Source of the DNA: Pseudonocardiaceae bacterium
Lineage (GTDB): Bacteria; Actinomycetota; Actinomycetes; Mycobacteriales; Pseudonocardiaceae
NCBI GenBank assembly: GCA_050700355.1
Contig: JBOHHE010000057.1
Coordinates: forward strand, 24,163-88,162
Direction of reading: 5' to 3'
Length of the DNA: 64,000 nt
Below, piece by piece: positions 12,025 to 41,984 of this stretch (its first letter is position 1; each line of letters opens with the position of its first letter). The notes under the pieces were generated by a model. The model was not told where the DNA came from, did not search any database, and saw nothing but the letters and a program-made list of their open reading frames with translations. A program made the translations under genes and the position numbers.

Positions 12025-12549
12025 GTGCCCGTCCGTATCACAAACACACCAGGAGTCTGCGTGTCCGTCACTGATGAACTACTCGCCAACAACTCCCGCT
12101 ACGTCGAGACCTTCGGTGGTGCATTGCCGCTGCCACCTGCCAAGGGCGTAGCTGTCGTCGCTTGCATGGATGCTCGGCTGGACGTTTACCGCATCCTCGG
12201 CCTGAATGAGGGCGAAGCGCACGTTATTCGTAACGCCGGCGGCGTGGTCACCGACGATGAGATCCGCTCGCTGGCGATCAGCCAGCGGCTGCTCGCCACG
12301 AAGGAGATCATCCTCATTCACCACACCGATTGCGGAATGCTCACCTTCACTGACGACCAGTTCAAGAAATCCATCCAGGACGAGCTCGGGATCAAGCCGA
12401 CGTGGTCCGCTGAAGCATTCCCGAACCTCGAAGAGGATGTCCAGCAGTCCATCGCTCGGATCAAGGCCAGCCCGTTCATCCCGAGGAAGGACGCCATCCG
12501 CGGCTTCGTCTTCGACATCGCGACCGGCAAGCTCAACGAGGTCATCTGA
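12025..12549 (+). CDS. beta-class carbonic anhydrase
   Basis: Zinc-ligand motifs CMDARL and HTDCGM. GTG start. Confidence 0.9.
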   Translation: MPVRITNTPGVCVSVTDELLANNSRYVETFGGALPLPPAKGVAVVACMDARLDVYRILGLNEGEAHVIRNAGGVVTDDEIRSLAISQRLLATKEIILIHHTDCGMLTFTDDQFKKSIQDELGIKPTWSAEAFPNLEEDVQQSIARIKASPFIPRKDAIRGFVFDIATGKLNEVI

Positions 12550-12608
12550 GCACTCCGAGGTTGAGTGCCCTTCAAGGACTACCAACCCACATCTAGGACG
12601 TCGCAAGC

Positions 12609-12646
12609 GGCAGCCCACCCCCTGGCGAGTCAGGGGGTGGGCTGCC
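12609..12646 (+). terminator. perfect 16-bp-stem hairpin downstream of the carbonic anhydrase gene
   Basis: ggcagcccaccccctg / gcgagt / cagggggtgggctgcc. There is no T-tract, as is common in actinomycetes. Confidence 0.5.
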
Positions 12647-12953
12647 GTCATGAGCAGTGACCCAACGACGGCCCAACCATCATGCCAGTAGAGTTCCCGG
12701 CTTCTCGACAGATCTGCGGCATCGTGGTCGGCGTCGGTCCGGACGCAGCATCTGGTGGATCAACCACTGGGTCGTCCACCCGAACGGTGGTCGCGTAGGT
12801 TGCGCTCCGCGCGTGTATCGAACCACCCTGCTACCCCGAAGCCTCCAACGTTCGGGATACTACTCGCCGATCCAGCTCGACCCCGCGTTGCGGCTACGAC
12901 TACGCTAGCGATAAGGACCACAAATATATCCACCTCGTCAAGAGGAGACTGCT

Positions 12954-13925: not shown

Positions 13926-13942
13926 CTTCATCGTATGCGGGG

Positions 13943-15046: not shown

Positions 15047-15074
15047 AGTCGCACGCCTTTCTGTTCACCTGGAC

Positions 15075-16601: not shown

Positions 16602-17380
16602 GTGTTACCCGGGCTTTCCAGCTTATCGATTGCGGCGCGAAGGTGTTCGGGTGCGGAAATGGGGAGCAGGTGTCCGATCTCCGGCAGAATCATGAGGTCG
16701 GCCCGCGAGATGATTTCTGCCGCCGTCTGCGCCATCTCTGGTGAAGCCTCCGCATCAGCGGAGCCCCAGACCATCTGCACAGGGCATCGAAGTTTGCGGA
16801 GGTCTTGTTCGTAATCTTCATTGACAACCCGGACCATGATAGAACGCATAACACCCTCGGCGGCCCGGTAGTCGGTCGATCCGTATCTATTTCGTACTCG
16901 ATTGAGCAGACCGTCGCTTACCAAGTTCCACCGACGGAGCGCACGGCCGAGCCGCACCGGCAGCGGAGGAGCTGGCCGAGCAGATTTTCGGCGCAACAAT
17001 GGCACCCCGGTGAGAACGAGCCCGCTTACACGATCCGGGAAATGAGCCCCCAGGCGGAGGGCGACCCTTCCGCCAAAGGAGTGACCCACTACAATCGGAG
17101 GATGCGGACATTCGTCTAGCACAGGAATGAGATGCTCGGCGTACTCCATGGTGCCCCAAATTTCACCGGGGGCGGGAGACAATCCGAATCCTGGCAGGTC
17201 GACCGCCAGGGCATCCAAGCCGGCAAGTGTCGCCGTGAAGTCTTGCCGATTCCGACCCCAACCGTGAAGTGCAATAACCGTAGGTGGCCCGGTACCGAAC
17301 CGCTCGGCGAATAACCGACCTGCCGAGTACGTGGTGAGCATCACTTTCTCCGTCGCGGGGTGACACACATTTATCTTCAC
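16598..17380 (-). CDS. alpha/beta-fold hydrolase
   Basis: HGWG oxyanion motif and GHSFGG nucleophile elbow. Its stop overlaps the MurF-like start by 4 nt. Confidence 0.8.
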   Translation of the reverse strand: MKINVCHPATEKVMLTTYSAGRLFAERFGTGPPTVIALHGWGRNRQDFTATLAGLDALAVDLPGFGLSPAPGEIWGTMEYAEHLIPVLDECPHPPIVVGHSFGGRVALRLGAHFPDRVSGLVLTGVPLLRRKSARPAPPLPVRLGRALRRWNLVSDGLLNRVRNRYGSTDYRAAEGVMRSIMVRVVNEDYEQDLRKLRCPVQMVWGSADAEASPEMAQTAAEIISRADLMILPEIGHLLPISAPEHLRAAIDKLESPGNT

Positions 17381-17549
17381 ACTGCGAAACTCAGCGGCCC
17401 ACGGCTCCTGTCCGGCCGTAGGCTGTGAAGTCTACTGGCCGCCACTCGGGCTACGCAGCCGGGCACAAGTGCGGCGACGGAGATCTTGGGGTTACTCACG
17501 ACGTACCACGTAGAGACGTTTGGTGAGGGTTGGTACATGAGGGCGATGA

Positions 17550-18491
17550 CTATTCTTGCAGGGCTCGGACCACCCGGGATGGTGCGGGCCTGCCCAGCTT
17601 CCCGGCCATCCACACGCTGGTCCGAACCAGAGCATCCAGATCTACTCCGTGCGCGATACCGAGCCCGTCCAACATCCACACCAGGTCCTCGGTGGCGAGA
17701 TTGCCGGTAGCCGATTCGGCATAGGGGCAACCGCCCAGTCCACCGGCGGAGGCATCCACACAAGTCACTCCGGCACGCAGGGCGGTGAGCGTGTTGGATA
17801 GGGCCTGACCGTAGGTGTCGTGGAAGTGCACGGCGAGTACATCAGCCCCGACACCAGCCCGGCGAAACCCGGAAAGCAGCGCGGCGACATGGCCCGGAGT
17901 GGCCACCCCGATGGTGTCCCCCAGCGAAAGCTCCGAACACCCCATGTCCAGCAGCCTGCGACCGACGGCGACGACCTGATGTACCGGCACAGCACCCTCC
18001 CATGGATCACCGAAGCACATCGAGAGGTATCCCCGCACGGCGAGCCCGGCAGCCCGAGCCCGGGCCACCACCGGGAAGAGCATCACGAACTGCTCGTCCA
18101 GACCCCGATTGAGGTTGCGCTGGGCGAAGCTCTCGGTGGCCGAGGCAAAGACCGCGATCTCGGCGATGCCGGCCGCCAGCGCCCGGTCCAACCCGCGCTC
18201 GTTGGGCACCAGCACGGGGTAGCGCACCCCCTCTCGGCGCACCAGCAACTGGAGCAACTCCGCGGCGTCGGCCAGTTGCGGCACCCAGCGTGGATGCACG
18301 AAGCTGGTGGCCTCCAAGACCGTCAACCCAGCCCCGGCCAGCCGGTCCAGAAATTCGGCCTTGACCTCGACAGGCACCAGCGAGGTCTCGTTCTGCAAGC
18401 CGTCGCGAGCCCCGACCTCCCAGATCCGCACCCGCTCGGGCAGCCCGTCGCTGCGGTGGAGGTGGGGCAGTCCGGTCGGTCTGGCCGCCAT
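17550..18491 (-). CDS. hydroxymethylglutaryl-CoA lyase
   Basis: EVGARDGLQNE motif and a DRE-TIM fold pattern through to ...GGCPYA. Confidence 0.9.
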   Translation of the reverse strand: MAARPTGLPHLHRSDGLPERVRIWEVGARDGLQNETSLVPVEVKAEFLDRLAGAGLTVLEATSFVHPRWVPQLADAAELLQLLVRREGVRYPVLVPNERGLDRALAAGIAEIAVFASATESFAQRNLNRGLDEQFVMLFPVVARARAAGLAVRGYLSMCFGDPWEGAVPVHQVVAVGRRLLDMGCSELSLGDTIGVATPGHVAALLSGFRRAGVGADVLAVHFHDTYGQALSNTLTALRAGVTCVDASAGGLGGCPYAESATGNLATEDLVWMLDGLGIAHGVDLDALVRTSVWMAGKLGRPAPSRVVRALQE

Positions 18492-18527
18492 CCCGTTAGC
18501 CTGTCACACCTCGCTGCCGGTCAGGTC

Positions 18528-19034
18528 TCAGTGCCGGTCAGCCACGTCGGATTCGCCCGGATCCAGGTCGTATTGAAGCAGTGAATGCACCCGCTCGACC
18601 TGTGGAATGTCGTCGAACTCCAGCGGTTCGTCGGAGGCCGACTCAATGCTCAGCGTGCCGCAACCCAGCAGTCGCTCGACGACGGTGTACCGGAACTGCA
18701 CGCTGTTGATCCGGTGGACCGGGATATCGATGCCGCTGCGCGACAGGATGCCCTCCCGGACCAGCACCCGCCTGGTGGTGAGCACGAAATGCGTGGTGCG
18801 CCAGCGCAGCAGCGGCACCAACGTCAACCACACCGCTCCGGCACCGCCAAGGCCTACCAGCACGATCCAGGCATAGAGCTCCCAGGACTGCCCGGCGGCC
18901 AGCGCGGCGAGATAGGCGCACAGAGCCACGATGAGCAGGAAGGTCAGCACCGGCACAACCAGCATCTTCCAATGTGGGTGCTTATGGATCACTACCCGCT
19001 CGTCGGATCTCAACAGCTCATCCGGGTACGCCAC
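18528..19034 (-). CDS. membrane protein with bacterial PH (bPH_2) domain
   Basis: Two TM helices followed by the pattern THFVLTTRRVLVREGILSR...I. The slot is syntenic with Rv3278c (from memory). Confidence 0.75.
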   Translation of the reverse strand: MAYPDELLRSDERVVIHKHPHWKMLVVPVLTFLLIVALCAYLAALAAGQSWELYAWIVLVGLGGAGAVWLTLVPLLRWRTTHFVLTTRRVLVREGILSRSGIDIPVHRINSVQFRYTVVERLLGCGTLSIESASDEPLEFDDIPQVERVHSLLQYDLDPGESDVADRH

Positions 19035-19112
19035 CGCTCCTCCTCCTGACCGCAGGCGCGAGCACGGTACCGCTGCGCGGGCAACCCAGGCGATCGCCGG
19101 AGCCGGAGAAGA

Positions 19113-19931
19113 TCAGCCCACCCGAACATGCGTGACGTCGCCGGCTGCCAGCGCACGGAGTCGCCCATCCGACAACACCATCAGGCGACCCTCGCTGTCC
19201 AGATCCACCGCGCTGCCGGTGAGCGCGGATTGCCCCGGCAACTCGACCCGGACCTGTTTGCCCAGGGTCGCGCAACAGTGCCGATATGCCTCTCGTAGCC
19301 CGGTGGCGTCCGGATCACCCCCGTGCCCGCACCACCCCAGTACCGCTCGGTCCAGCTCATGCAGCAGAGCTCGCAGCAGCAGCTCACGATCAGTACAGGC
19401 GGCTTGCTCCAGTGCCAACGAGGTGGCACCGGGCACCGGCAGTTCATCGGGTTGCACTGTCACGTTGAGCCCGATACCGATCACCACGGCGGGCCCGGGG
19501 ACCACTTCGACGAGGATTCCGGCAGCCTTCCGCCCGTCCGCGCCGAGCAGCAAATCGTTCGGCCACTTCAGCGCGGCCGGAATGGCGGCCAGCTCGGTGA
19601 CGATCCGGCACAGTGCGACGCCTGCCAACAGCGGCAGCCAGCCCCACCGGGCCTGCGGTACCTCGCGCGGCCGCAGCAGCACGGACAACGCCAGCCCGGA
19701 TCGGGCTGGCGCGACCCACCGGCGATTCACCCGCCCGCGTCCGGCGCTCTGGTGCTCACCGATGAGTACCGTGCGATCGTGTGCCCCGGCTCGCGCGGCG
19801 GCAACCAGCGCGGCGTTCGTCGAAGGCAGCGAAGCGACGACGTCCAGCGCGGCATATGGCCCGGCCGGGACCACCAACGCCCGGCGCAGCACGTCCGCGC
19901 GGAGCGGGGGCCGATCAAGAGCGGACAACAC
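19113..19931 (-). CDS. birA: biotin--[acetyl-CoA-carboxylase] ligase (group I, no DNA-binding domain)
   Basis: GEHQSAGRGRVNRRW (GRGRxGRxW-type) and KWPNDLL motifs. Confidence 0.85.
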   Translation of the reverse strand: MLSALDRPPLRADVLRRALVVPAGPYAALDVVASLPSTNAALVAAARAGAHDRTVLIGEHQSAGRGRVNRRWVAPARSGLALSVLLRPREVPQARWGWLPLLAGVALCRIVTELAAIPAALKWPNDLLLGADGRKAAGILVEVVPGPAVVIGIGLNVTVQPDELPVPGATSLALEQAACTDRELLLRALLHELDRAVLGWCGHGGDPDATGLREAYRHCCATLGKQVRVELPGQSALTGSAVDLDSEGRLMVLSDGRLRALAAGDVTHVRVG

Positions 19932-20029
19932 AGAGCAACGCTAACGCCTGCCCGTAGCGCCTGCGCGAATCGTCACACTCCTGTCCCGGGCAGCGACGTT
20001 TCTTAAGGACGCTCCTAGGGTGTTCCACC

Positions 20030-21660
<1,631 letters not shown>

Positions 21661-25141: not shown

Positions 25142-26908
25142 ATGACCTCAGCGCTGCACAAGGTGCTCATCGCCAACCGTGGTGAGATCGCGGTCCGAGT
25201 GATCCGCGCCTGCCGGGACGCCGGGCTGGGCAGCGTCGCCGTCTACGCCGACGGCGACCGCGACGAGCCGTTCGTGCACCTCGCCGACGAGGCTTTCGCG
25301 CTGGGTGGCGCCACGGCCGCGCAGAGCTACCTGGATGCGGCCAAGCTGCTCGACGTGGCGGCCAGGGCGGGCGTGGATGCCCTGCATCCCGGCTACGGTT
25401 TCCTGTCCGAGAACGCCGATTTCGCCCAAGCGGTGATCGACGCGGGACTGATCTGGATCGGTCCCGGCCCGCAGGCGATCCGGGATCTGGGGGACAAGGT
25501 CACCGCGCGCCGGATCGCCACCACGGCGGGCGCGCCGCTGGTGCCCGGTACCAAGGATCCGGTATCCGGGGCGGCTGAGGTGGTGGCCTTCGCTGAGGAG
25601 TACGGGCTGCCGGTAGCCATCAAGGCCGCTTTCGGCGGTGGCGGGCGCGGTCTGCGCGTCGCTCACACGATTCGGGAAATCCCCGAACTGTTCGACTCCG
25701 CAGTGCGCGAAGCCGTCTCGGCCTTCGGACGTGGCGAGTGCTTCGTGGAGCGTTATCTGGACAAGCCGCGACACGTCGAAGCGCAGGTGCTGGCCGACCA
25801 GCACGGCACCGTGATCGTGGTCGGTACCCGGGACTGCTCGCTGCAGCGGCGCCACCAGAAGCTGATCGAGGAGGCCCCCGCACCATTCCTCTCCGCTGAG
25901 CAACGCCGCACACTGCACGACGCGGCGCGGACGATCTGCGTCAACGCCGGCTACCACGGCGCGGGAACCGTCGAGTTCCTCGTCGGGCAGGACGGGACCA
26001 TCTCGTTCCTGGAGGTGAACACCCGGCTCCAGGTGGAGCATCCGGTTTCGGAAGAGACCACTGGGCTGGACCTGGTCCGCGAGCAGTTTCGCATCGCGGC
26101 CGGTGAGAAGCTGTCGATCAGCGAAGATCCCGAGCCGCAGGGTCATGCGATCGAGTTCCGGATCAACAGTGAGGACGCCGGGCGCGGCTTCCTGCCTACC
26201 CCGGGCACCGTCACCGTGTTCGATCCACCGGCAGGACCGGGCGTGCGGCTGGATGCCGGGATCCGCCAGGGCAGCGTGATCAGTGGCCAGTTCGACTCGA
26301 TGCTGGCCAAGCTGATCGTGGTGGGTGAGAATCGCGAGCAGGCTCTGGAACGCTCCCGCCGGGCGCTGGCCGAATTTCGTGTCGAGGGCGTGCCGACGGT
26401 CATCCCGTTCCACCGGGCGGTGCTCGACGATCCGGCCTTCACAGCGGCCGATCCGGAGGGCTTCACCGTGCACACGCGGTGGATCGAGACCGAGTTCTCC
26501 GCCCGGCTGGTGCCCTACAGCGCCACGTCGCACGACACTGAACCAGCAGCGCAGCGCCAAACCATGGTGGTCGAGGTGGATGGGCGCCGTCTGGTGGTCT
26601 CACTACCGGGTGACCTGGGCCTACCCGGGGACACCGGTGCCGCCAGGACCAGACCTCGCACCCGAGGCGGCGGACGGACGGCCACGGTATCGGGGGATGC
26701 GGTCACCGCACCCATGCAGGGCACCGTCGTCAAGGTCGAGGTCTGCGATGGAGAGACCGTCGAGGCCGGCGATCTCATCATCGTGATCGAAGCAATGAAA
26801 ATGGAGAACCCGGTCACCGCCCACAAGCCGGGCACGATCACCGGCCTCACGCTCGAACAAGGCAGCTCGATCACCCAAGGCACCACCATCTGCGAAATCA
26901 AGTCCTAA
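25142..26908 (+). CDS. accA3: acetyl/propionyl-CoA carboxylase alpha subunit (biotin carboxylase + BCCP)
   Basis: Biotin carboxylase N-terminus [14 protein letters not shown] and C-terminal biotinylation motif EAMKMEN. Confidence 0.93.
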
Positions 26909-28104
26909 CCGCTGAGCAGGAACGCTCCTTCCGCCGCGAGCAGGACAGCGGCGGCGGTCACGGCGCCGGTCGCGGCGAAGCGCCCCCAGGGGATCGACAC
27001 CCCGCTGGCCCGGCACCGCTCGTACCAAATGATGATCGCCAGCGACGCCCACGGGGTGATCAGCGGGCTCACATTCGTGGCGATCAGCAGGCCCAGCAGT
27101 TGATCACTGTTGGTCACCACGGCCTCACCCGCCACGTACGCAGGCAGGTTGTTGACCCCGTTGGACAGCACGGCGCCCAGGATGCCGGCCCTGGCGACGC
27201 CCTCCACCCCGCCCTCGGTGCCGACCAGACTGCCGAGCAGGTCGCCCAGCCCGTACCGGTCAATGGTCTGGACCACCAGGAATAACCCCGTAACGAAGGC
27301 CAACAGCCGCAACGGAATCATCCGCCATGTGAAGGCTGCGCGATCCCGGGCGATAAACGCCACGACAAGCACTCCCATGCAGGTCAGCGCCGAGACCGCC
27401 AGCGGAACCCCGAGCAGTACCAGCACGGTGAACGCGGCACAGGCCAGGCCCGCGGTCCGCAGCAGAACCCGATCCCGCGGCACGTGGCGTCCCGGAGGCT
27501 CGTACCGGTCACTGCCGCGTCGGCGCGGACGCCAGTAGAACACCCAGAGGCAGACCGCCGTGGCCACGATAGCCGCTGCCTGGGGGGTCGCCATGCGAAT
27601 CGCGAAAGCGGGAGGCGATAGCTCCACCCGGTCCATGGCCAGCAGGTTGGTGAGGTTGGATACCGGCAACAGCAGGCTCGCGGTGTTGGCCAGCCACACC
27701 GTCAGCATCGCCAACGGAAGGGGCGGGATATCGGCCTTCGCAGCGGTGGCGAGCATGACCGGAGTGAGCAGTACCGCAGTGGTGTCCAGATTGAGGAAAA
27801 TCGTCGTTGCGGAAGCGAACACGACGCATAACCCGAACAGCGCGAGGTAGTTCCCGCCCGCCCAGCGCGCCAGCCGGACCGCGACCACGTCGAACACTTC
27901 GGCCTTCGCGGTCAGCTCGGCCAGCACGATCACAGAGCCGAGAAAAACCAGTAGCGGCAGAACCCGGCGGACCGTCTGGCCGGCCTCGGCAAGGGGGAGG
28001 AATCCAACCAATACCGCGCCGCATCCGGCGATCAGGAAGGTCGCGGCCACCCAGTCCAACAGCTCCAACTGCCGCGCTCGGTCCGTAGCCTGCGCCTGCT
28101 TCAC
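26905..28104 (-). CDS. ArsB/NhaD-superfamily permease
   Basis: About 400 aa and multi-pass, with [11 protein letters not shown] and SNLTNLL motifs. I chose the GTG start at 28104 because the longer ORF runs into the divergent gene region. Confidence 0.7.
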
Positions 28105-28201: not shown

Positions 28202-29188
28202 ATGCCTCGGGTCATCAAATGGATCGGCAAGAACGCCGACGGCGTGATCGCGCTTGTGCTGGCCGCGTGTGTCGCCATCCTCGGCTTGACCGAGGTAGTC
28301 GGGGGAACCGATGTCGTCGGGGACACTGCAATCAGCAGTGCGGTGCTGTTCGTCCTCGCTGTGCTCGCCACGACTCTGCTGCGCGACCGGGTCCGCTCCG
28401 GGGTGGTCGAGCGGGAGGTGGAGAAGGTGCTCGAGGTGGTCCATCAGCTCGATGCGAAGATCACTAGTACCAAGACGGCGCTGGATGCCGCCGCGAACGT
28501 GCGCGTGCTCGTGGGCGAGGAGGTCGGTCAGGCGCACGCTGATGCGCATCGGCAAACCGATACGTGGATGTTCAAGGGTGGCACCGGCACCTTCGTCCGG
28601 GCGGTCACCCTCCCCCAGTGCATCGCGCAAGCACGTCGAGACGGGCGCCCGCTGACCGTCCGGCTGGAGATTCTGGATCCGACCAATGAGAGCGCGTGTG
28701 AGCACTACGCGGTGTTCCGCCGGTCGCTGTCGGACCGGCCGGACGGCACCGGCGAGATATGGACGCCCGATCGGACCCGCAAGGAGGCTCTCGCCACCGT
28801 CCTGGCCGCCTGCTGGCACCGGCAGCGGTATCGGCTGCTCACTGTCGAGGTTGGCCTATCGTCGACCATCACCACGTTCCGGTGGGACCTGTCCTCCCGG
28901 TCCCTGATCATCACTCAGCAGGACCCCAGGGAGCCCGCCCTGCTGATCAAGCGCGGCTGGGTCTATTACGACCGGTACGCCACCGAACTGCTGACCAGCC
29001 TCGAGCAATCCACTCGGCTGCCGATCGAGCAAGCCGCGAAGACTGTTCCGCTGAGCGACGAACCCTCGGTGGAGGAGGTCGAGCGGCTCTTCCTCGCCTT
29101 GAACCTGCCACTGCCCACGTCATTCGACGAACGCGCCATCAATGACATCATCGGTAAGGCCATCCAGGCCAAGAACCCCTATGAGTGA
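28202..29188 (+). CDS. hypothetical membrane-anchored protein (2 TM + coiled segment + unknown globular domain)
   Basis: Two N-terminal hydrophobic helices and a high GC3 frame. No motif recognised. Confidence 0.6.
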   Translation: MPRVIKWIGKNADGVIALVLAACVAILGLTEVVGGTDVVGDTAISSAVLFVLAVLATTLLRDRVRSGVVEREVEKVLEVVHQLDAKITSTKTALDAAANVRVLVGEEVGQAHADAHRQTDTWMFKGGTGTFVRAVTLPQCIAQARRDGRPLTVRLEILDPTNESACEHYAVFRRSLSDRPDGTGEIWTPDRTRKEALATVLAACWHRQRYRLLTVEVGLSSTITTFRWDLSSRSLIITQQDPREPALLIKRGWVYYDRYATELLTSLEQSTRLPIEQAAKTVPLSDEPSVEEVERLFLALNLPLPTSFDERAINDIIGKAIQAKNPYE

Positions 29189-29850
29189 GCATGAACTACC
29201 CGGACATCCTGCGTGAGATCGAGCAGCGCACCGCAAGCACACAGCTGCCTGCCAGGGTGATTTCCGTGATGACGGAGGTGGCGGCGGGCCGCAGACCAAT
29301 GGCCGCGATCCGGCATCCGCTCGGCTTCGTCTGCCTCCAGGTGCAACGACGCGGCGCGTACGGCGTCTGTGTGCACCTGTGGACCGAGTGGCTGCCGGAT
29401 TCGGAGCTCACCACCTCGCCGATGCACTCGCACAGCTGGGATCTGCTCAGTTACGTCCTCTACGGCGAGATCGGTAATCAGCTCGTGCGCGTCACCGATG
29501 CCCCGACCGCCCCCACCCACCGATTGTTCGAGGTGCTCAGTGACGGCGACATGGATGAGATCCGTCCCACCGATCGCCTGGTGCGTTGCGAGCCCGGGCC
29601 GGTGCAATCGATCGCGGCGGGTGAGGTGTACCGCCTCGCCGCAGGCGAATTCCACCTGACGATCGTGCCCGGCGCAGCAGAGACAGCGACCGTCGTACTC
29701 GGCCACGCCCGGACCGACCTGGTCGACCTGTCGCTGGGCGCACCGGGCACGCGGCGCCATCAGGTGTTCCGGCGACGGTGCACCGAACCTGAGACGGCGC
29801 ACGCGGCCGGGCTGATCGCGCGCCGCCTGACAGATAACATGACGGGATAG
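29185..29850 (+). CDS. hypothetical cupin-like protein
   Basis: The start overlaps the previous stop (GTGA). The HSHSWD...G motif suggests a cupin or cysteine-dioxygenase-like metal site; this is tentative. Confidence 0.5.
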   Translation: MSMNYPDILREIEQRTASTQLPARVISVMTEVAAGRRPMAAIRHPLGFVCLQVQRRGAYGVCVHLWTEWLPDSELTTSPMHSHSWDLLSYVLYGEIGNQLVRVTDAPTAPTHRLFEVLSDGDMDEIRPTDRLVRCEPGPVQSIAAGEVYRLAAGEFHLTIVPGAAETATVVLGHARTDLVDLSLGAPGTRRHQVFRRRCTEPETAHAAGLIARRLTDNMTG

Positions 29851-29869: not shown

Positions 29870-30766
29870 ATGGACGTGGTGCCCAGGCTGGCGGCGGCCG
29901 CACTTGATCCGGAGCTCAACCTGGCCCAGCGGGTGGCCGTGGGTGCCGCCCAAGCGGCCGGCGCCCTGGTGAGCAGCCGCGCTCAGGGTGAGCTCGGGCT
30001 CCGCGGCAAGGGGCCCGCCGGGGATGTGGTGACAGACCTCGACATCTCGGCCGAACGCTTGATCATCAGCCGTATTCAGACCGCCTTTCCTGAGCACCGC
30101 ATCATCTCGGAAGAGGCAGGTGTACTCGGCGCCGAGGGCAGTGGCTGGACCTGGCTGGTCGATCCGTTGGACGGCACCAACAATCTGGCGGTCGCACTGC
30201 CCACCTACGTGATCGGCATCGCGCTGTGCCATGATCGGATTCCGGTCCTGGGCGTCGTGCACGATCCGGTCACCGGGGGAACCTGGCAAGCGGCCCGCGG
30301 CGCCGGCGCGCACGGGCCGGACCAGCGTGTGCTGTGCGCGCCGTTTCGCACCCATCCGGCCGGTCCCCTGCTGGCCTGGACCCAGGGTTACTCCGTGACC
30401 AGGGACGACGCAACCGCGGGCGCGCTGAAGATCGTCATGGAGTCGGCCGCGCGACGGGTCTTCCAGCTGTGGACCCCACTGCTGTCCCTGGTGATGCTGG
30501 CCCGAGGGGACATCGACGGCATGATCGGATATCACGCGGAAGAGATCGACCTGCCTGCCGGCGCACTGATCGCAGCCGAGGCGGGGGTGGCCCTGTTCAA
30601 CCTCAACGGTGCCCCCTTCGACGAACGGATCGGCAGGCCCCAGGTGGACCGTAGCTTCATCGCCTGTCGCCCTGAGCACCTCGAATCCCTGCTGGCATTG
30701 GTGCACACCGCAGAGCGGGTCGTCCCGGAGGTCAAGGAACTGATGGCCCTGCTGCCGTCCGGCTAA
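29870..30766 (+). CDS. inositol-monophosphatase-family phosphatase
   Basis: ISEEAG and WLVDPLDGTNN metal-binding motifs. Confidence 0.8.
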   Translation: MDVVPRLAAAALDPELNLAQRVAVGAAQAAGALVSSRAQGELGLRGKGPAGDVVTDLDISAERLIISRIQTAFPEHRIISEEAGVLGAEGSGWTWLVDPLDGTNNLAVALPTYVIGIALCHDRIPVLGVVHDPVTGGTWQAARGAGAHGPDQRVLCAPFRTHPAGPLLAWTQGYSVTRDDATAGALKIVMESAARRVFQLWTPLLSLVMLARGDIDGMIGYHAEEIDLPAGALIAAEAGVALFNLNGAPFDERIGRPQVDRSFIACRPEHLESLLALVHTAERVVPEVKELMALLPSG

Positions 30767-30828
30767 GCCCTGCTGCCGCCCTACCACGCCCCTGCTACCG
30801 CCCTGCTACGCACAATGTCATATTGACA
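30746..30828 (+). promoter_or_regulatory. four CCCTGCT(G/A)C(C)G direct repeats plus TGTCA-TAT-TGACA palindrome abutting the STAND gene ATG
   Basis: Repeat copies begin near 30747, 30768, 30790 and 30801. The palindrome lies at 30816-30828, 2 nt before the ATG at 30831. No Shine-Dalgarno sequence is visible. Confidence 0.3.
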
Positions 30829-30830: not shown

Positions 30831-33800
30831 ATGCGGCGGCGCACCGAGAACACGAATCGCCCCATCGACTTTTTCATCAGCTACTCCCCCGCCGATGAAC
30901 GGTGGGCCACCTGGATCGCCTGGGAGCTCGAGGCCGTCGGTTACTCGACGATGCTGCAGGCATGGGACTTCGTGCCCGGCACCAATTTCATCGACTTCAT
31001 GGATCGCGGCGTCAGCGAGGCCGCTGTCGTTGTTTCGGTGCTCTCCCGCAACTACCTCGCCTCCCGATACGGACGGCTGGAATGGCAGGCCGCCCTACGT
31101 GCCGACCCGGACGATGCCAACCGCCTGGTGACGATCCGGATCGAGGACTGTCCGCTGGAGGGTCTGCTCTCCATGATCACTTACGTGGACCTGGTGAGGA
31201 TCAGCGATCCGAAGGCGGCTCGGGCCGCGCTACTCGGTCGGATGCGCGAAGCGCTCGACGGCCGGGCGAAACCCGCCAGCGGGCCCGGCTATCCGTCCGA
31301 CCGGATCGGCAGGCAGGCACAGCCGGTGGACGAGCCGGTGGTCACCGGCCAAGTCACCCGCAGGCGGAACCCGGTCACCGCGCCCGCCTATCCCCCCGCA
31401 GCACCGGCCGGAGACCCCACCCAGTCGGCAGTGACCGCGCTGCACGTCCCCGGGCCCCGGTTCGGTCGCGGCCTGATCCAGCCGGGTCAGGCAAGGACTC
31501 CGGAGGAACTGCAAGCTCGGATCTACGGGGAGCTGACCCGGGCCACCGGGGATGGGGCGCCCGCGCCTGACCTCCTCATCATCACCGGCGACCTCACCGA
31601 GACCGGCAGTCGCCGCGAGTTCACAGCGGCAACGGAGTTCCTGACCGGTCTGCGAGTGCTCCTCGGCCTGGAACCGAACCGCCTTGTCGTGGTCCCCGGC
31701 CCGCGGGACATCACCGGTCCGGCCTGCCGGGCCTACTTCGCCAGCTGTGAAGCCGACGACGTGACGCCCAAACCTCCTTACTGGCCCAAGTGGCGACATT
31801 TCACCACGCTGTTCGAAGAGCTTTACCAGGGCTTGGACGAGCTGGTTTTCGACAGCCAGCAGCCGTGGACGCTGTTCACTGTTCCCGAGCTGCGCGTGGT
31901 CGTCGCGGGGCTCAATTCGACCATCAACGACAGTCACCGGGAGGACGATCACTACGGCTGGATCGGCGAGACACAGGCCGCCTGGTTCGCCCAGCGGCTG
32001 CGATCGTTCGAGCAATCGGCGTGGTTGCGGATCGGTGTGCTGCGCCACACTCCGGCTGACGCCAACCCCGGCGTCAGGCCAGATCCAGCGCTGTTGCGGG
32101 ACACCGCGACGTTGGACGCGCTGCTGGGCCGTCGGCTCAACCTCCTGCTGCATGGCACGCTCGGCACCCGGCAGCGCGCCGCCGAGGGCGAACTGCCGCT
32201 GATTTCACCGGCCGGGCCGGACAGCTGCCAGCTCCTCCAGATCACCGCCCAGGGGCTGGTCCGGATACCCTTCGGAGCAGGCCGTGAGGTACTGACCTGC
32301 CAGTGGCACGCGGTCGGCGGCACCTTCGCGGCCGGTGCTTCGGATTCCTCGGACGACCGCCCCGATTCCGGAGAAATCGAGCCGGTCGAGGACGAGACAC
32401 CGCCGGATCCGACGCGCCTGTTGCTGGACCGGATCACCGAGGTGTGCCAGACGCGGTACGACAACCCGAAGATCCGGTTCGTCGTCGGTGCGTTGCCGTA
32501 TCTGATGGTCAGCCATCGCGAGGACGGATTCGTCCGGCAGCTGCGGGTGGCGGCGCACGTCGGCGAGCTGACCACCGCCGACGTCGAGCGGTTCTTCGAT
32601 CAGATCCACGCGGCAGAGCCGGACACCGTCTCCGAGCTGGTCTACCAGGGGCCGCCGGTGGGCCAGGCATTGCGGATCGAGGCGCTGCGTCGTGGCATCC
32701 GGGTGCGCAGCTTCATCGAGTTCCAGGGCCTGCTGGATCTCCGCGAGTTCGTCGCCGGGCAGACCGCGCGGTTGCGCGTGGACACCCTCTACCCACCCGA
32801 GGGGTACGTGCCCCAACGATTCCGCGAGCTCACCGGCACCGATCGAACCGTGCGCCGCAACCTGGTCGAGGAACTGCTCACCCTGCTGGCCACCGACGAG
32901 GGACGGTTCGTCCTGCTGATGGGCGACTTCGGGCGAGGCAAGACCTTCGCGCTGCACGAGCTGGCCCGGCGGCTGCCGACCGAGCTGCCGCACCTGATCC
33001 CCATCCTGTTGGAGCTGCGCTCGCTGGAGAAGACCCATTCGGTGGAGGCGATGGTGGCCGCGCACCTGGCCAACCACGGCGAAGAGCTGATCGATCTCAA
33101 GGCCTTCACCTACATGCTGCGGGAAGGCCGGATCGTGCTGCTCTTCGACGGTTTCGACGAGCTGGCCACCCGGGTGACCTACGACCGGGCGGCCGATCAC
33201 CTGGATCTGATCCTGCGGGCGGTCGAAGGCAAAGCGAAAGTTCTCATCTCCAGCCGGTCGCAGCATTTCAGGACCGACACCCAAGTACTCACCGCGCTGG
33301 GCGAGCGGGTGGGACTACTCACCCAGCGCCGCGTGCTGAGCATCGAGGACTTCACCCCCGACCAGATCCGCCGGTATCTGGACAACCGCTACGGCGGGGA
33401 CACCGACGCCACCGAAGATCGGTTGCGGCTGCTCAGCGGCGCCCACGGCTTGCTCGGGCTCTCCCAGAATCCGCGCATGCTCAGCTTCATCGCCGATCTG
33501 GACGAGAGCCGACTACGGGCAGTCGCGGAGTCCGGGCATGTCATCAGTGCTGCCTCGCTGTACGAGGAGATCCTCAGCGCCTGGCTGAGTTACGAGGAGC
33601 GGCGGACCGGAGACACCCACGGAGCTGCCGCCGGGCTCACCGTGGGCGAACTCTGGCAGGCGGTGACCGCACTGGCCATCCGGCTGTGGGAGTCCAATGA
33701 GCAATACCTGGAGCCGACCGACCTCGCCGAGGTCGCCGAGACGCTCAGTGCACTGTCGGAGCACCAGCTCACCCCCCACCAGACCCTCCATGCCGTTGGC

Positions 33801-36587
33801 GCGGGCAGCCTGCTGGTGCGCACCGAGGACGGCCAGCTGGGTCTGATCCACGGTTCGGTGGTGGAGTGGCTGGTCGCCAAGGCGATCGCCGAGGAACTGG
33901 CAGGCGGTGCGACCACTGTCGCGATGCTGTCCCGGCGGCCGCTCTCCCAATTGAGCGTGGACTTCCTCTGTGACCTCGCCGATACCCGCTCCTGTCAGCT
34001 CTGGCTGCGCAGGGTACTCGCCGACGCCCACGCCGATGAAGTGGCAAGACGCAACGCCATCAAGATCAGCACTCGGCTGCGCTCGATGGTCCGAACCGAC
34101 CTGCGAGCAGCGGTCCTGCGTGGTGAGGACCTCTCCCACCGGGAACTGGCCGACGCCGACCTCACCGGCGCTGATCTCACCGATGCCAGACTGGTCGGCA
34201 CGGACCTGAGCCGAGCGGTGCTGCGGGACGCGGTGCTGGCCGGGGCCCGGCTCGATGAGGCGAAGCTGGTCGGAGCGGATCTGACCGGGGCCGACTTCAC
34301 CCGGGCCCGACTGGCTCGAGCCGACCTGCGTGATGTGGTGGTGACGGGCAGTCGCTGGCGGGGCGCCGCGCTGCTCGACGTCTCGGCCCGTCAGGAGTTC
34401 TTCGACGCCCCGGAACTGCATGGTGCGGCCATTGCACCGGGTCAACCGGTCGAAGCGGAGTTCGCGCCCGCCGCGATCGGCGTGTCCTACGGATTCGACG
34501 TCGGCAGGCTCCCAGCGCCGGTCGACTACAGCACCGACGGACACACCCTTGCCATCGGCAACGACGACGGCGGGGTGCTGATCTGTGACGCGGTCTCCGG
34601 GCGCCCGCTGCGCACACTGCATGGCCATCGTGGGCGGGTATACGCGGTGGCCTACGGACCCGGCGACTCGGTGCTGGTCACCGGGGCGAGCGACGGCACG
34701 ATCTGCCTGTGGGATCCGGTGACGGGGGCTCGACGTCACCGCATCGAGGGTTGCCGCGACTGGGTGTGGCCGGTGACGATCAGCTCGGCTGAGTCCGGCT
34801 CTTCGGGAACACTGCTCGCGGCTGGTGAGCACAGTGGCGAGGTCCGGCTCTTCGACGTCGCGACCGGCGCGGTGCGTCACGTTCTGCCCGGTCACACCGC
34901 GCCCGTGTGGACCGCTCGGTTCTCCCCTGACGGCACTACGCTGGCGACCGGCGACGATGCCGGGATCGTCCGGCTGTGGGACACCGCGACCGGTACGTTG
35001 CGCACCGCGTTGGCGGATCACCACGGCTCGGTGTACCGGCTGGTGTTCAGCCCGGACTCCGCACAGCTTGCCACCGCCGATCATGGCGGCACTGTCCGGC
35101 TCTATGACGTGGGCAACGCTGGGAACGCCGCAAGCGCTGTGCCGCGCCTCGAGTTGACCGAGCACCACGCCTCCGTCTACGCCCTGGACTTCCACCCCGA
35201 CGGCGGCCTGCTGGCCAGCGGCGACACCCGCGGTGGAGTCCAGCTGTGGGATCTGCCCAGCGGGCAAGGCACGCCATTGCTCAGTCCTGGCAGCGGCGCC
35301 ATTTACTGGGTCACCTTCTCCCCTGGCGGTGAGCTACTCGCGATCGGTGGAAACACCGGAATCGTCGGGGTGTGGGATGTCGCGAGCCGCCGGCTGCGGC
35401 ACGAACTGACCGGGCACAAGGGGTCGGCTTGGCCAATAGCGTTCCGCCCGGACGGCAGCCAGTTGGCCACCAGCAGCAATGACTGGACCACCCGACTGTG
35501 GGATCCGCGCAGCGGACAATGCCTGCATGTGCTGCGCGGTCACGGACGGCGGATCACCTCGGTGCACTTCAATACCGCCGGGTCCCTGCTCGCGACCAGC
35601 GGCAACGACGGGGTGGTACGGCTGTGGGATCCTCGGACCGGGCATCTGCGCCGCACGCTGACCGGCATCGCCGACCGATTGATCGCCGCGTTCTTCGACC
35701 CGGCGAGCTCCTTGATCGCCACCCCGAGCAACGACGGTGACGTGCACCTCTGGAACGCCGAGTCCGGCGTCTACGAGCGCGCGTTGGACGTCGGCACCGA
35801 TTACGTGTGGGCGACCGCCTTCAGCCCGGACGGAGACATCCTGGCCACCGCGAACGACAACGACACGGTCCGGCTGTGGTACCGCACGACCGGGCGGGCG
35901 GTGCGCACCTTCGCCGAGCATCGGGGCCGAGTGCGCTCGATCGCGTTCAGTCCCTCCGGAGACCATCTGGCCACGGGCTGTGATGACGCGGTGGTGCGGT
36001 TGTGGCACGTCGACACCGGCGTCTGCCGTCGCACGCTTCGTCGCCATACCGGTCGGGTGTACGCGGTGGTGTTCACCCCGGACGGCTCCCAGCTGGTGAG
36101 CGCGAGCCACGACGGCACGGCGTGCATCTGGGACTGCGAGTCCGGCGAGGTGCTGCACACGCTCACCGGGCACACCGGCAGGCTCTGGGCCGCCGCCCTG
36201 GATCCAACCGGCGCGATGATCGCCACGGCAGGTGATGACCTGGGTGTGCGGCTCTGGGACGCCCGCACCGGCAGGCATCTGCACACCCTGCAAGCCCACA
36301 CCCGGAGGGTCTGGTCGGTCGCCTTCAGCCCGGACAGCACCCAGCTCGCCAGTGCCGGCGACGACGGCGCCGTACATGTCTGGGACCTGGAGACCGCGCA
36401 GGTGCGGGTCACGCTGCTCGGGCTGGCGCAGGGCTGGGCCGCGCTCGCACCAGACGGCAACTACAAGCTTCAGGGCAACGTGGCAGGCGAATTCTGGCAC
36501 GTGATCGGCACCTGCCGCTTCGAACCGGGCGATGTGAACACCTACCTGCCCGCTGTACGCCAGCTTCCGCTGGGCACCGAGTTCTGA
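30831..36587 (+). CDS. 1918-aa STAND/NLR-like protein: TIR, degenerate metallophosphoesterase, NACHT NTPase, pentapeptide repeats, 15 WD40 repeats
   Basis: Single uninterrupted ORF. TIR (DFFISYSPADERWATWIAWELE...RLEWQ). Walker A GDFGRGKTF and Walker B VLLFDGFDEL. A(D/N)LxG pentapeptide tract. 15 repeats ending in WD-type dipeptides. Confidence 0.9.
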   Translation: MRRRTENTNRPIDFFISYSPADERWATWIAWELEAVGYSTMLQAWDFVPGTNFIDFMDRGVSEAAVVVSVLSRNYLASRYGRLEWQAALRADPDDANRLVTIRIEDCPLEGLLSMITYVDLVRISDPKAARAALLGRMREALDGRAKPASGPGYPSDRIGRQAQPVDEPVVTGQVTRRRNPVTAPAYPPAAPAGDPTQSAVTALHVPGPRFGRGLIQPGQARTPEELQARIYGELTRATGDGAPAPDLLIITGDLTETGSRREFTAATEFLTGLRVLLGLEPNRLVVVPGPRDITGPACRAYFASCEADDVTPKPPYWPKWRHFTTLFEELYQGLDELVFDSQQPWTLFTVPELRVVVAGLNSTINDSHREDDHYGWIGETQAAWFAQRLRSFEQSAWLRIGVLRHTPADANPGVRPDPALLRDTATLDALLGRRLNLLLHGTLGTRQRAAEGELPLISPAGPDSCQLLQITAQGLVRIPFGAGREVLTCQWHAVGGTFAAGASDSSDDRPDSGEIEPVEDETPPDPTRLLLDRITEVCQTRYDNPKIRFVVGALPYLMVSHREDGFVRQLRVAAHVGELTTADVERFFDQIHAAEPDTVSELVYQGPPVGQALRIEALRRGIRVRSFIEFQGLLDLREFVAGQTARLRVDTLYPPEGYVPQRFRELTGTDRTVRRNLVEELLTLLATDEGRFVLLMGDFGRGKTFALHELARRLPTELPHLIPILLELRSLEKTHSVEAMVAAHLANHGEELIDLKAFTYMLREGRIVLLFDGFDELATRVTYDRAADHLDLILRAVEGKAKVLISSRSQHFRTDTQVLTALGERVGLLTQRRVLSIEDFTPDQIRRYLDNRYGGDTDATEDRLRLLSGAHGLLGLSQNPRMLSFIADLDESRLRAVAESGHVISAASLYEEILSAWLSYEERRTGDTHGAAAGLTVGELWQAVTALAIRLWESNEQYLEPTDLAEVAETLSALSEHQLTPHQTLHAVGAGSLLVRTEDGQLGLIHGSVVEWLVAKAIAEELAGGATTVAMLSRRPLSQLSVDFLCDLADTRSCQLWLRRVLADAHADEVARRNAIKISTRLRSMVRTDLRAAVLRGEDLSHRELADADLTGADLTDARLVGTDLSRAVLRDAVLAGARLDEAKLVGADLTGADFTRARLARADLRDVVVTGSRWRGAALLDVSARQEFFDAPELHGAAIAPGQPVEAEFAPAAIGVSYGFDVGRLPAPVDYSTDGHTLAIGNDDGGVLICDAVSGRPLRTLHGHRGRVYAVAYGPGDSVLVTGASDGTICLWDPVTGARRHRIEGCRDWVWPVTISSAESGSSGTLLAAGEHSGEVRLFDVATGAVRHVLPGHTAPVWTARFSPDGTTLATGDDAGIVRLWDTATGTLRTALADHHGSVYRLVFSPDSAQLATADHGGTVRLYDVGNAGNAASAVPRLELTEHHASVYALDFHPDGGLLASGDTRGGVQLWDLPSGQGTPLLSPGSGAIYWVTFSPGGELLAIGGNTGIVGVWDVASRRLRHELTGHKGSAWPIAFRPDGSQLATSSNDWTTRLWDPRSGQCLHVLRGHGRRITSVHFNTAGSLLATSGNDGVVRLWDPRTGHLRRTLTGIADRLIAAFFDPASSLIATPSNDGDVHLWNAESGVYERALDVGTDYVWATAFSPDGDILATANDNDTVRLWYRTTGRAVRTFAEHRGRVRSIAFSPSGDHLATGCDDAVVRLWHVDTGVCRRTLRRHTGRVYAVVFTPDGSQLVSASHDGTACIWDCESGEVLHTLTGHTGRLWAAALDPTGAMIATAGDDLGVRLWDARTGRHLHTLQAHTRRVWSVAFSPDSTQLASAGDDGAVHVWDLETAQVRVTLLGLAQGWAALAPDGNYKLQGNVAGEFWHVIGTCRFEPGDVNTYLPAVRQLPLGTEF
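30864..31235 (+). other. TIR domain (aa ~12-135 of the STAND protein)
   Basis: FISYS motif and the conserved Glu in SRYGRLEWQAAL. Confidence 0.8.
31437..32270 (+). other. calcineurin-like metallophosphoesterase-like domain with degenerate metal ligands (aa ~203-480)
   Basis: LIITGDLTETG (GD motif kept), VVVPGPRDI in place of GNHD, LLLHGT in place of GHxH, ALHVPGPRFG in place of DxH. Confidence 0.55.
32898..33900 (+). other. NACHT NTPase module (aa ~690-1020)
   Basis: GRGKT P-loop, hhhhDGFDE Walker B, and SQNPRML downstream motif. Confidence 0.8.
34098..34385 (+). other. pentapeptide-repeat tract (aa ~1090-1185)
   Basis: LRGEDLSHRELADADLTGADLTDARLVGTDLSRAVLRDAVLAGARLDEAKLVGADLTGADFTRARLARADLRD. 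Confidence 0.8.
34503..36500 (+). other. WD40 repeat region, 15 recognisable blades
   Basis: Blade ends read LICD, LWDP, LFDV, LWDT, LYDV, LWDL, VWDV, LWDP, LWDP, LWNA, LWYR, LWHV, IWDC, LWDA and VWDL. Confidence 0.85.
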
Positions 36588-40774: not shown

Positions 40775-41761
40775 CTACGCGGTGTCCGTCACCGCGTAAC
40801 ATGGCCCTTGCCGCTGAGCTGAAGCACGGCGTTTCCGGACACGCAGCTCGCCTAGAGCGGCTTGGCAGCCAACCGCTCCTCTGCTCCGGAACGCTTCGTC
40901 GAGTCTTTCGAACAACTCAGTCGGCTCGCATAGATCCGCCGCAGTCGCGCGAATAGTAATCCACCCACGCCGTCGCAGGTCGCGGTCACGCCGAGCGTCC
41001 CGGTCCTTGCGATTCTCGTGCGCCTCGTAGCCGTCGTATTCCAGTGCGATGCGCAGCGACGGCCAACACAGATCGAGGACATACAGGACGACATCAAGAG
41101 TGTCGACCACCTTGAATTGATCCACCGGTGGCGGGAAGCCCGCCTCCACCACGAGGAGTTTCAGCCAACTCTCCGGTGGTGAATCGGCCCTGCCCGTCAC
41201 CAGCGGGAGGAGTCCGTTCGCGCGGGCGGTACCTCGACGATCTGCTCGGGCACTCAGCCGGCTGGCGATTTGTAGCCGAAATTCCGGCCGCTCAAGCTCC
41301 GGGAACAGGCCAGCCGCTTGATCTGCCACAGCGAGGGCCCGTCTGGCTACATCGGTACAGAGCAATTCGGTGACAGCGACGTCGAGGGGGACCGTGCGCA
41401 GACCTCGTACATCGATCACCTCCTCCAACAACTTACGACCCTGATGGACGACCAGACCTTCCCTCACCCGCAACGATCGCGAGTACGGCACCACCACGTG
41501 CACGATGCAGGACTCCGCAGCTGAGCAACCTTGTAACCAGGCCGCCGTGAGACCCGTGAGCGCTGCCGTGGAACCCGTCGCGAGCAATGCTGCTGACGCC
41601 CGAATGAACGGATCCAGGACCATCTCACGTGGGATCAGCACGCCCCAGAGCTGCCTGATCCGGCCATCAGCGAGCATCCGTTCGAGGGACCGGCGACCGA
41701 GTTCGGCACGCAGCTCGGCGTGCGTCCATGGACCTCGTAGGTGTTCCGGGAGACCGACCAT
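40775..41761 (-). CDS. DUF559 / Vsr-like endonuclease-fold domain protein
   Basis: C-terminal LRIALEYDGYEAHENRKDRDARRDRDLRRRGW motif. I chose the start at M48 of the ORF (MVGLPEHL); the ORF extends to 41902. Confidence 0.7.
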   Translation of the reverse strand: MVGLPEHLRGPWTHAELRAELGRRSLERMLADGRIRQLWGVLIPREMVLDPFIRASAALLATGSTAALTGLTAAWLQGCSAAESCIVHVVVPYSRSLRVREGLVVHQGRKLLEEVIDVRGLRTVPLDVAVTELLCTDVARRALAVADQAAGLFPELERPEFRLQIASRLSARADRRGTARANGLLPLVTGRADSPPESWLKLLVVEAGFPPPVDQFKVVDTLDVVLYVLDLCWPSLRIALEYDGYEAHENRKDRDARRDRDLRRRGWITIRATAADLCEPTELFERLDEAFRSRGAVGCQAALGELRVRKRRASAQRQGPCYAVTDTA

Positions 41762-41874
41762 GCCTTGAGCATCACCGCGTGGACTACCCGGGCGCGAGCC
41801 CCAGAGCGTGCAGCTGTGGACACCTACCCCCGATGTGGACAACCAGCGACTACGCGCCAACGCCGATTTGACAG

Positions 41875-41984
41875 CCTTGGTGCCCGGTACACCGGGCACC
41901 AAGGCCTGACACGCCAGGCATCAACGCACGACACACCGAGCATCAGGGCCTGACACACCGGGCATGGGGGGCTGACATGCGGGA
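41875..41984 (+). repeat. 22-bp tandem repeat x5, degenerate (same family, locus 3)
   Basis: ccttggtgcccggtacaccggg / caccaaggcctgacacgccagg / catcaacgcacgacacaccgag / catcagggcctgacacaccggg / catggggggctgacatgcggga. Confidence 0.8.

Follow-up and report, generated by a model that had tools for sequence, protein, structure and literature searches.

Bacterial NACHT proteins, which are related to the NLRs, combine an N-terminal effector, a central NTPase marked by the NACHT-specific Walker B signature D[GAS]hDE and a C-terminal repeat sensor, and they depend on Walker A (Kibby et al., 10.1101/2022.07.19.500537). The modules listed in that survey include TIR, calcineurin-like phosphoesterase, (inactive) restriction endonuclease (REase), pentapeptide and beta-propeller domains; the tested members (bNACHTs) lie near defence systems, and the C-terminus of the bNACHT01 clade diversifies rapidly (Kibby et al., 10.1101/2022.07.19.500537). 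Bacterial NLR-like proteins are now read almost automatically as mobile anti-phage genes. The subject of this report is the gene for one NLR-like protein in a 64,000-nucleotide stretch of a Pseudonocardiaceae genome (contig JBOHHE010000057.1, hereafter the window), where a single unbroken open reading frame (ORF) of 5757 nt with an ATG start, at 30831-36587 on the forward strand, encodes an NLR-type protein of 1918 aa. The protein has all the enzymatic hallmarks of an immune-type receptor, yet the gene is housekeeping-like in its fixed locus, vertical descent, slowly evolving sensor and obligate-looking transporter partner.

Activation of TIR NADases by oligomerisation is established for plant TIR-bearing NLRs (TNLs), SARM1 and bacterial TIR-STAND proteins. 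Plant TNL resistosomes and SARM1 resemble the window protein in having a TIR domain with a catalytic glutamate, retained here, that is activated when an NTPase or scaffold gathers the TIRs. They differ in the remaining modules, with NB-ARC and LRR in plants and ARM-SAM in SARM1 as opposed to NACHT, pentapeptide and WD40 in the window, and plant TNLs, unlike the window gene, form fast-evolving multi-copy families. A STAND NTPase followed by WD40 blades, 14-15 of them in the window protein, is shared with Apaf-1, TEP1 and the fungal proteins HET-E and HET-D, and the WD40 region matches TEP1 propeller models. Apaf-1, however, has an NB-ARC module and a CARD output. The repeats of HET-E/D are highly alike and hypervariable, whereas the blades of the window protein are 24-48% identical to each other (mean pairwise 36%) and form no tandem repeat at the DNA level. 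Unlike the bNACHTs, the family described here is syntenic, vertically inherited and paired with a permease, and its sensor is conserved. The literature search found neither a description of this orthologous family nor an experimentally tested member of this orthogroup. The types of module are already known from earlier catalogues. What appears to be new is a vertical, syntenic, slow and core-like orthogroup with a pseudo-phosphoesterase descended from an active effector and a recurrent permease partner.

Architecture and descent of the NLR gene

The gene and its parts are as follows.

30819..30824 (+): -10-like hexamer CATATT, 6 nt upstream of the NLR ATG, from cross-species comparison
30831..36587 (+): NLR-type gene with TIR, pseudo-phosphoesterase, inactive REase, NACHT, pentapeptide repeats and WD40, from ORF translation and profile searches
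30870..31232 (+): TIR domain, predicted output enzyme, aa 14-134 (TIR_2)
31431..32240 (+): metallophosphoesterase-fold domain with degenerate active site, aa ~201-470 (AlphaFold2 and Foldseek)
32418..32741 (+): NA-iREase3 domain, aa 530-637 (PF22739)
32904..33383 (+): NACHT NTPase, aa 692-851 (Pfam NACHT)
up to 34085 (+): helical/winged-helix region after NACHT
34086..34415 (+): pentapeptide-repeat beta-helix, aa ~1086-1195, ~18 pentads (Pfam Pentapeptide, E 1e-25)
34548..36470 (+): WD40 region, aa ~1240-1880, 14-15 blades (WD40/propeller models, E 1e-103 to 1e-123)
36471-36584 (+): conserved C-terminal tail after WD40

The tripartite layout of effector (TIR), NTPase (NACHT) and repeat sensor (pentapeptide and WD40) is present, and by its defining motifs the protein is an NLR-type STAND switch and a member of the bacterial NACHT (NLR-related) superfamily. 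The WD40 blades probably form two propellers. An identical protein is recorded on one NCBI contig (GCA_975304795.1). The original prediction, made from the letters of the window, had described such a protein in one uninterrupted 5757-nt frame, and the ORF as well as the order of its modules were borne out by the profile searches and the AlphaFold2 fold. TIR_2 matches at E 2e-32 (112.5 bits over the whole protein, cut-off 28) and NACHT (PF05729) at 43.5 bits (cut-off 26.7), so both profiles expected by the prediction are found above their cut-offs, with its motifs RLEWQ, GRGKT and DGFDE in place. The ~110-aa segment at aa 530-640 that had seemed loosely REase-like is a curated, catalytically inactive REase-fold module, NA-iREase3 (PF22739, ‘NACHT-associated inactive restriction endonuclease’), which lies N-terminal to NACHT and scores above its profile threshold (E 4e-35, 121 bits, cut-off 27). 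The ~19 pentapeptide repeats and 15 blades proposed can be counted as ~18 pentads and 14-15 blades. A phmmer search of the NACHT region against PDB sequences gave no useful match.

Conservation was followed in an alignment of 81 proteins, the window protein and 80 orthologues from genome contigs, and all comparative counts refer to these best 80 of at least 501 relatives from a genome scan, each from a different species genome. The TIR residue E84, which in alignment occupies the position of the Glu conserved among TLR TIR domains, is identical in 81/81, as are W85, S17, Y18 and D22. The Walker A motif GDFGRGKT (K704) and the Walker B motif D773-G-F-D-E777, which carries the NACHT signature D[GAS]hDE, are likewise invariant in all 81, and R809 is also invariant among the aligned orthologues. 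By its profile and conserved Glu the TIR domain fits the enzymatic class, with a predicted activity as NADase or signal synthase.

The gene is a single-copy orthologue under purifying selection that appears to have descended mostly vertically across mycelial actinomycetes, and its pattern in the best 80 loci speaks against a mobile accessory defence gene. Each of these loci, from as many species genomes, encodes an intact full-length protein (1832-1979 aa), with a single orthologue meeting the contig end before its stop codon. The architecture of ~1850-1980 aa occurs in Streptosporangiales and relatives (Nonomuraea, Actinomadura, Spirillospora, Streptosporangium, Microbispora, Sphaerisporangium, Planotetraspora and Actinocorallia) and also in Micromonospora, Amycolatopsis and metagenome-assembled genomes (MAGs) of Pseudonocardiaceae; elsewhere it is found in a few genomes only, one Nocardia and two Streptomyces. 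It is common in databases, where it goes by names such as ‘TIR domain-containing protein’, and the N-terminal 1080 aa used as a query matched 222 database proteins. The nearest relative among the best 80 is that of a Pseudonocardiaceae MAG, at 74% identity. Trees were built by neighbour-joining on simple distances, and that of the NLR groups the sequences by genus and family. Two adjacent housekeeping genes diverge from pair to pair in step with the NLR, coaE with r=0.88 and a rate ratio of 1.1 and rpsA with r=0.73.

The sensor evolves at the pace of the rest of the protein. The ratio of non-synonymous to synonymous substitution rates (dN/dS), computed for ten close pairs, spans 0.08-0.28 over the full gene and 0.04-0.35 within the WD40 region, which is conserved like the other domains (77% identity within Nonomuraea, 92% within Micromonospora). 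A search for DNA tandem repeats across the ORF found none in the WD40 region and two small arrays elsewhere; the region, with its old and diverged blades, shows neither the high blade-to-blade identity nor the recent repeat turnover of the HET-E/HET-D type. In the plasmid and phage collections, no copy was found on a true plasmid and none in a phage genome. The sole full-length match in the plasmid collection was PLSDB NZ_LT559118.1, an 11.85-Mb replicon of Nonomuraea gerenzanensis labelled ‘plasmid I’ and evidently the chromosome.

One lineage has lost the gene. In a Mycobacteriales MAG, seen in two independent assemblies (locus L082, 12711-13461; locus L083, 5482-6232), the decayed NLR retains only aa 6-60 (TIR, 82% identical) and aa 1808-1918, the latter being the last WD40 blades and the tail. 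The remnant lies directly after the conserved three-gene group described below and the permease gene is absent; because this MAG keeps the three-gene group only, the NLR and the permease can be lost and were there lost together. In the best 80 loci the gene is intact, follows taxonomy, evolves slowly and has a conserved sensor, the plasmid and phage collections searched hold no true copy of it, and for these reasons its pattern is not that of a mobile arms-race defence gene.

For the phosphoesterase domain the match at the sequence level is weak (Pfam Metallophos E 0.11, 13.4 bits, cut-off 21.5), and the NCBIfam model ‘DS9_1 anti-phage phosphoesterase’ gives 3e-12, under its own cut-off; a literature search on the ‘DS-9’ anti-phage phosphoesterase returned no results. 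The AlphaFold2 model of aa 195-525 shows a clear metallophosphoesterase fold (predicted local distance difference test, pLDDT, 87.7), and its top Foldseek matches in the PDB are class III cNMP phosphodiesterases/glycerophosphodiesterases, Rv0805, GpdQ and Lmo2642 (E 7e-12 to 4e-10). The metallophosphoesterase-like domain of the original prediction therefore stands as a fold, but most of the metal ligands are lost. In the alignment to Lmo2642, GD and one His survive and the motif-I Asp does not. GPRD stands in place of GNHD and GTLG in place of GHxH, so that the Asn and His of GNHD and both His of GHxH, present in Rv0805, Lmo2642 and GpdQ, are missing. The complete dinuclear-metal ligand set (DxH, GD, GNH[DE], H, GHxH) is not present, and ligand positions vary among the 81 proteins (at D254, 45 D and 36 N; at R292, 48 R and 33 H; at H205, 63 H and 18 Q).

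When 1.84 billion representative proteins were searched with aa 195-640, 991 relatives emerged, of which 328 had E<1e-30. In most of them the phosphoesterase domain has the canonical motifs LHLSDxQFG, GDLAEWG, PGNHD, HHN and HGHTH; it is N-terminal or lies behind a trypsin-like peptidase, and after it come NA-iREase3, NACHT and either WD40 or TPR repeats. Because most relatives keep these motifs, the domain in the TIR-bearing orthogroup descends from an active effector and has degenerated. It remains under purifying selection (dN/dS 0.03-0.25 between close orthologues) and is probably a pseudoenzyme with a binding or regulatory role, which would make it a clear natural example of a phosphoesterase effector turned pseudoenzyme inside an NLR.

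The start of the gene is marked by a conserved hexamer. The motif [G/C/A]ATA[C/A/T]T occurs 4-9 nt before the NLR start in 47/80 loci, and exactly 6 nt before it in 41, as against 0.2 in shuffled sequence. Such conservation backs the start as annotated and suggests that the gene has a promoter of its own that yields a leaderless mRNA, with CATATT in the window as the likely -10 element. A generic promoter and terminator scan found nothing above chance, and the hexamer emerged only through cross-species comparison.

A permease lineage paired with WD40-containing NTPases

Gene order around the NLR in the window is biotin carboxylase (+), permease (-), a 328-aa protein (+), a 219-aa protein (+), an inositol-monophosphatase (IMPase)-family phosphatase (+), NLR (+), glpD (-) and glpK (+). 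The following genes come into the comparison.

26905..28068 (-): ArsB/CitMHS (SLC13-like) permease, the conserved partner (Pfam CitMHS 5e-35, ArsB 6e-18)
28202..29188 (+): 328-aa protein, two N-terminal transmembrane helices and a phospholipase D (PLD)-superfamily-like soluble domain (hydropathy, AlphaFold2, Foldseek)
29191..29850 (+): 219-aa protein with invariant H42, C48, C60, H62, H79, H81, H155 and H190 (alignment)
29870..30766 (+): inositol-monophosphatase-family phosphatase, 298 aa, directly upstream of the NLR (Pfam Inositol_P 4.5e-41)

The permease gene lies directly upstream of the NLR and divergent from it in 78/81 loci, with an estimated distance of 46-370 bp from start codon to start codon, and permease pairwise distances correlate with those of the NLR (r=0.91). 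The three-gene group of the 328-aa, 219-aa and IMPase-family genes stands between the two in the window and in L002, the locus closest to it, and in two loci (L005 and L085) the permease is directly downstream of the NLR on the same strand. The linkage is therefore kept in three gene orders, and the outer flanks differ between orders. In the L085 MAG the NLR ends at 18376 and the permease starts at 18377 (18377-20182), with zero bases between them; this permease is called as a 601-aa product with a TetR_N domain, either because it is fused to a regulator or because gene calling merged the two.

The pairing extends beyond the NLR orthologues. Six further permease orthologues (~60% identity) were taken from genomes outside the 80 loci, and all six adjoin a WD40-containing NTPase system, with unrelated outer flanks throughout. 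In four (Allocatelliglobosispora, Hamadaea, Phytohabitans and strain KLBMP 9797) the permease is divergent from a WD40 and KAP-NTPase protein of ~1290 aa, and these KAP-linked permeases cluster in the permease tree. The partner in Dactylosporangium is a TIR-less relative of the NLR, 38% identical and collinear from aa 240 to the C-terminal tail, whose phosphoesterase motifs are degenerate too. Kutzneria viridogrisea (locus L087, 2409-10179) has a VMAP/MoxR ternary-type conflict system that includes a 1348-aa TIR-WD40 protein, the gene for which is followed by the permease orthologue after a 4-nt gap. Genes for an EAD2 protein and a Crp-like regulator are also close to the Kutzneria viridogrisea permease, as is a SIR2 gene.

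WD40-bearing versions of MoxR-vWA-VMAP ternary systems and of KAP NTPases (PifA, QatA), with TIR in Kutzneria, hence occupy the permease-adjacent position elsewhere, although their NTPase cores are different and their WD40 regions are not orthologous to that of the window protein. The recurring element is the pairing of this permease lineage with a WD40-containing P-loop NTPase system. A general defence hotspot beside the permease was rejected as the main explanation, as every occupant seen was a WD40-containing NTPase system. Among the accessible surveys of such systems, including eLife surveys, none mentions a permease or transporter partner.

These comparisons do not support two claims of the original prediction. 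It had placed an accessory gene in a variable slot between accA3 and glpD; the flanking genes are as described, with an accA3-like biotin carboxylase further upstream and glpD downstream, but the slot is not variable, as an intact orthologue with the permease, with or without the three-gene group, is found in 80/80 best loci. It had also proposed a single-gene defence system, whereas the gene is nearly always beside a permease and neither a defence-system model match nor a mobile-element copy was found. Occurrence of the same gene at a conserved position in relatives, which the prediction itself had named as a sign of a core role, is largely what is seen, and the tree follows taxonomy.

A proposed conserved-cue switch and its competing explanations

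The combined picture, to which we give roughly even credence, is of a switch driven by NTP, with TIR as its output, that responds to a conserved cue which may be linked to the permease. The C-terminal sensor, made up of the pentapeptide beta-helix and two WD40 propellers, would keep the protein off until binding of the cue leads to NTP-dependent oligomerisation of NACHT. Oligomerisation would gather the N-terminal TIR domains and result in cleavage of NAD+ or production of an NAD-derived signal, with arrest or death of the affected hyphal compartment as the outcome. The two modules between TIR and NACHT would be inactivated enzymes acting as regulatory or ligand-binding adaptors. The evolutionary pattern leads one to expect a conserved cue and not a phage epitope in rapid evolution; an endogenous state, the status of the permease partner or its substrate, and an effect that infection always has are the candidates.

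A more specific form of this proposal, put forward tentatively and with the balance against it, holds that NLR and permease constitute an ancient two-gene ‘core’ unit of mycelial actinomycetes in which the NLR guards the transporter, its substrate or the membrane state and triggers TIR-mediated hyphal death or arrest. The permease lineage would then recruit different WD40 NTPase partners (NACHT, KAP or MoxR/VMAP) by genus. Were the guard proposal true, it would define an undescribed class of transporter-coupled NLR/NTPase surveillance modules and an instance of guard-type or physiological signalling by a bacterial NLR. A functional coupling of any form would make the pair a tractable system in which to ask what a conserved bacterial NLR detects, be it a guarded host protein or an endogenous cue as opposed to a phage epitope, and would bear on the uses of TIR signalling among multicellular actinomycetes.

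Several points weigh against the conserved-cue switch and its permease link. A TIR effector is a classical hallmark of defence, and all functional statements on the NLR family are inferences. The counts cover the best 80 of at least 501 matches, hence ‘core’ status is not proven, and Streptomyces seldom carries the family. In their WD40 regions, the KAP and Kutzneria partners resemble the NLR only generically (23-34% identity), so the constant WD40-permease pair rests on domain type and not on orthology. The Dactylosporangium relative has no TIR domain, which implies that TIR output is not obligatory for the function of the pair. Adjacency to the permease could, moreover, be retained ancestry together with a shared divergent promoter, with no physical or signalling link.

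Three other explanations compete with the switch proposed here. The protein might be a stand-alone anti-phage abortive-infection NLR, in which the WD40 or pentapeptide repeats bind a conserved phage protein, NACHT oligomerises, the TIR domains deplete NAD+ and the infected compartment dies, the neighbours being irrelevant. Its TIR-NACHT-repeat architecture and intact motifs match bacterial NACHT proteins shown to be anti-phage, and relatives bear other conflict-type effectors (a trypsin-like peptidase or an active phosphoesterase); the gene, however, is not in a defence island, its neighbours are metabolic or housekeeping and PADLOC gives only weak TIR matches. Vertical single-copy descent at the same locus in 80/80 species, at the rate of coaE and with no plasmid or phage copies in the collections searched, is not what this explanation leads one to expect, even though the gene can be lost, as in the Mycobacteriales MAG, and sensors for conserved phage core proteins need not be hypervariable (PMC13581612). 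The strong permease linkage, which survives rearrangement, would also be left aside, and overall we consider this account unlikely. A defence role for the NLR is unproven, and the support offered for it in the original prediction does not hold.

A physiological or developmental regulator, in which the NLR senses an endogenous, permease-linked metabolite, membrane or ion state and has no immune role, is improbable; TIR-derived nucleotides or local loss of NAD+ would control death or differentiation of hyphal compartments in the mycelial life cycle. Such a regulator fits with the core-like conservation of the gene, with purifying selection in each domain and with an occurrence limited to mycelial actinomycetes, yet Streptomyces, in which actinomycete development has been studied best, has the family rarely or not at all, and at least one lineage can do without the gene. 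The sites beside coaE and rpsA or beside glpD and accA3, the conserved own promoter with a leaderless start and the neighbours (IMPase-family phosphatase, PLD-fold membrane protein and permease), which suggest small-molecule or lipid metabolism, would also agree with it, although we know of no bacterial NLR with a non-immune role and TIR output. Finally, the neighbourhood might be inherited synteny only, with the NLR, permease and three-gene group unrelated and kept together by chance or by a shared bidirectional promoter. Core regions of actinomycetes hold synteny over long periods, and the three-gene group persists without the NLR and stands apart from it in several Micromonospora and Plantactinospora. 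The NLR-permease pair, on the other hand, is conserved between orders when the outer flanks are not, is kept in three gene orders and has its counterpart in the 6/6 other permease orthologues that adjoin non-orthologous WD40 NTPase proteins in otherwise unrelated contexts, which leaves mere synteny a doubtful explanation that we would not favour.

The three-gene group and the wider neighbourhood

The three-gene group lies upstream of the NLR in ~68/80 loci (the 328-aa gene in ~68/80, the 219-aa gene co-located in ~70/80 and the IMPase-family gene in ~68/80) and is set apart from it by insertions in several Micromonospora and Plantactinospora. It is tied to the NLR less strongly than the permease is. 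The 328-aa protein belongs to a family with 703 matches and without a Pfam domain. Its AlphaFold2 model (pLDDT 81.6) matches PssA, the PLD/nuclease domain of SauUSI and FAM83 in Foldseek (E ~2e-4), and on this model assignment to the PLD fold is made with moderate confidence; the family alignment has no invariant His at the HKD position. A role as a LOG/SLOG nucleotide sensor, considered for its invariant WxFKGGTGT and by comparison with Thoeris ThsA, was rejected, since the model matches PLD-superfamily folds. The 219-aa protein has no match in Pfam, NCBIfam, PDB or PADLOC, and profile searches with both proteins against PDB sequences found no match. The IMPase-family phosphatase scores under all NCBIfam equivalog cut-offs.

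Directly upstream of the NLR, window positions 30746-30809 hold three tandem copies of ~21 nt, the first being GCCCTGCTGCCGTCCGGCTAA and the other two each 76% identical to it. The first copy is the 3' end of the IMPase-family gene, including its stop codon, and the other two fill the spacer before the NLR. Most relatives, unlike the window, have the permease gene between the IMPase-family gene and the NLR, and the tandem copies may be the footprint of the rearrangement that put the IMPase-family gene directly upstream of the NLR.

Beyond the NLR, the permease and the three-gene group, genes differ between orders. The flank in Streptosporangiales consists of coaE, a GNAT gene and rpsA; among the 81 loci, glpD is beside the NLR in the window only and accA3 is common only to the window and L002. 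The location is not a defence island, a variable region or a mobile element, and the neighbours are metabolic or housekeeping genes. PADLOC, one of the checks named by the original prediction, gave only weak partial TIR matches for the NLR (best 3.5e-8) and none for its four neighbours, with no system-level match for any of them.

Two further parts of the window drew attention. The stretch at ~12000-17400 is low in GC (0.57-0.61 as against ~0.66-0.69 elsewhere) and may be an acquired peptide-ligase or cell-wall-modification cluster with the following genes.

12954-13925 (+) and 13943-15046 (-): D-Ala-D-Ala-ligase-like ATP-grasp proteins
15075-16601 (-): Mur-ligase-like protein
16598-17380 (-): alpha/beta hydrolase

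At 40775-41902 (-), between a GGACT/AIG2-like gene and an M20 peptidase gene, the window encodes a 375-aa protein with a C-terminal DUF559/REase_MTES_1575-like endonuclease-fold domain.

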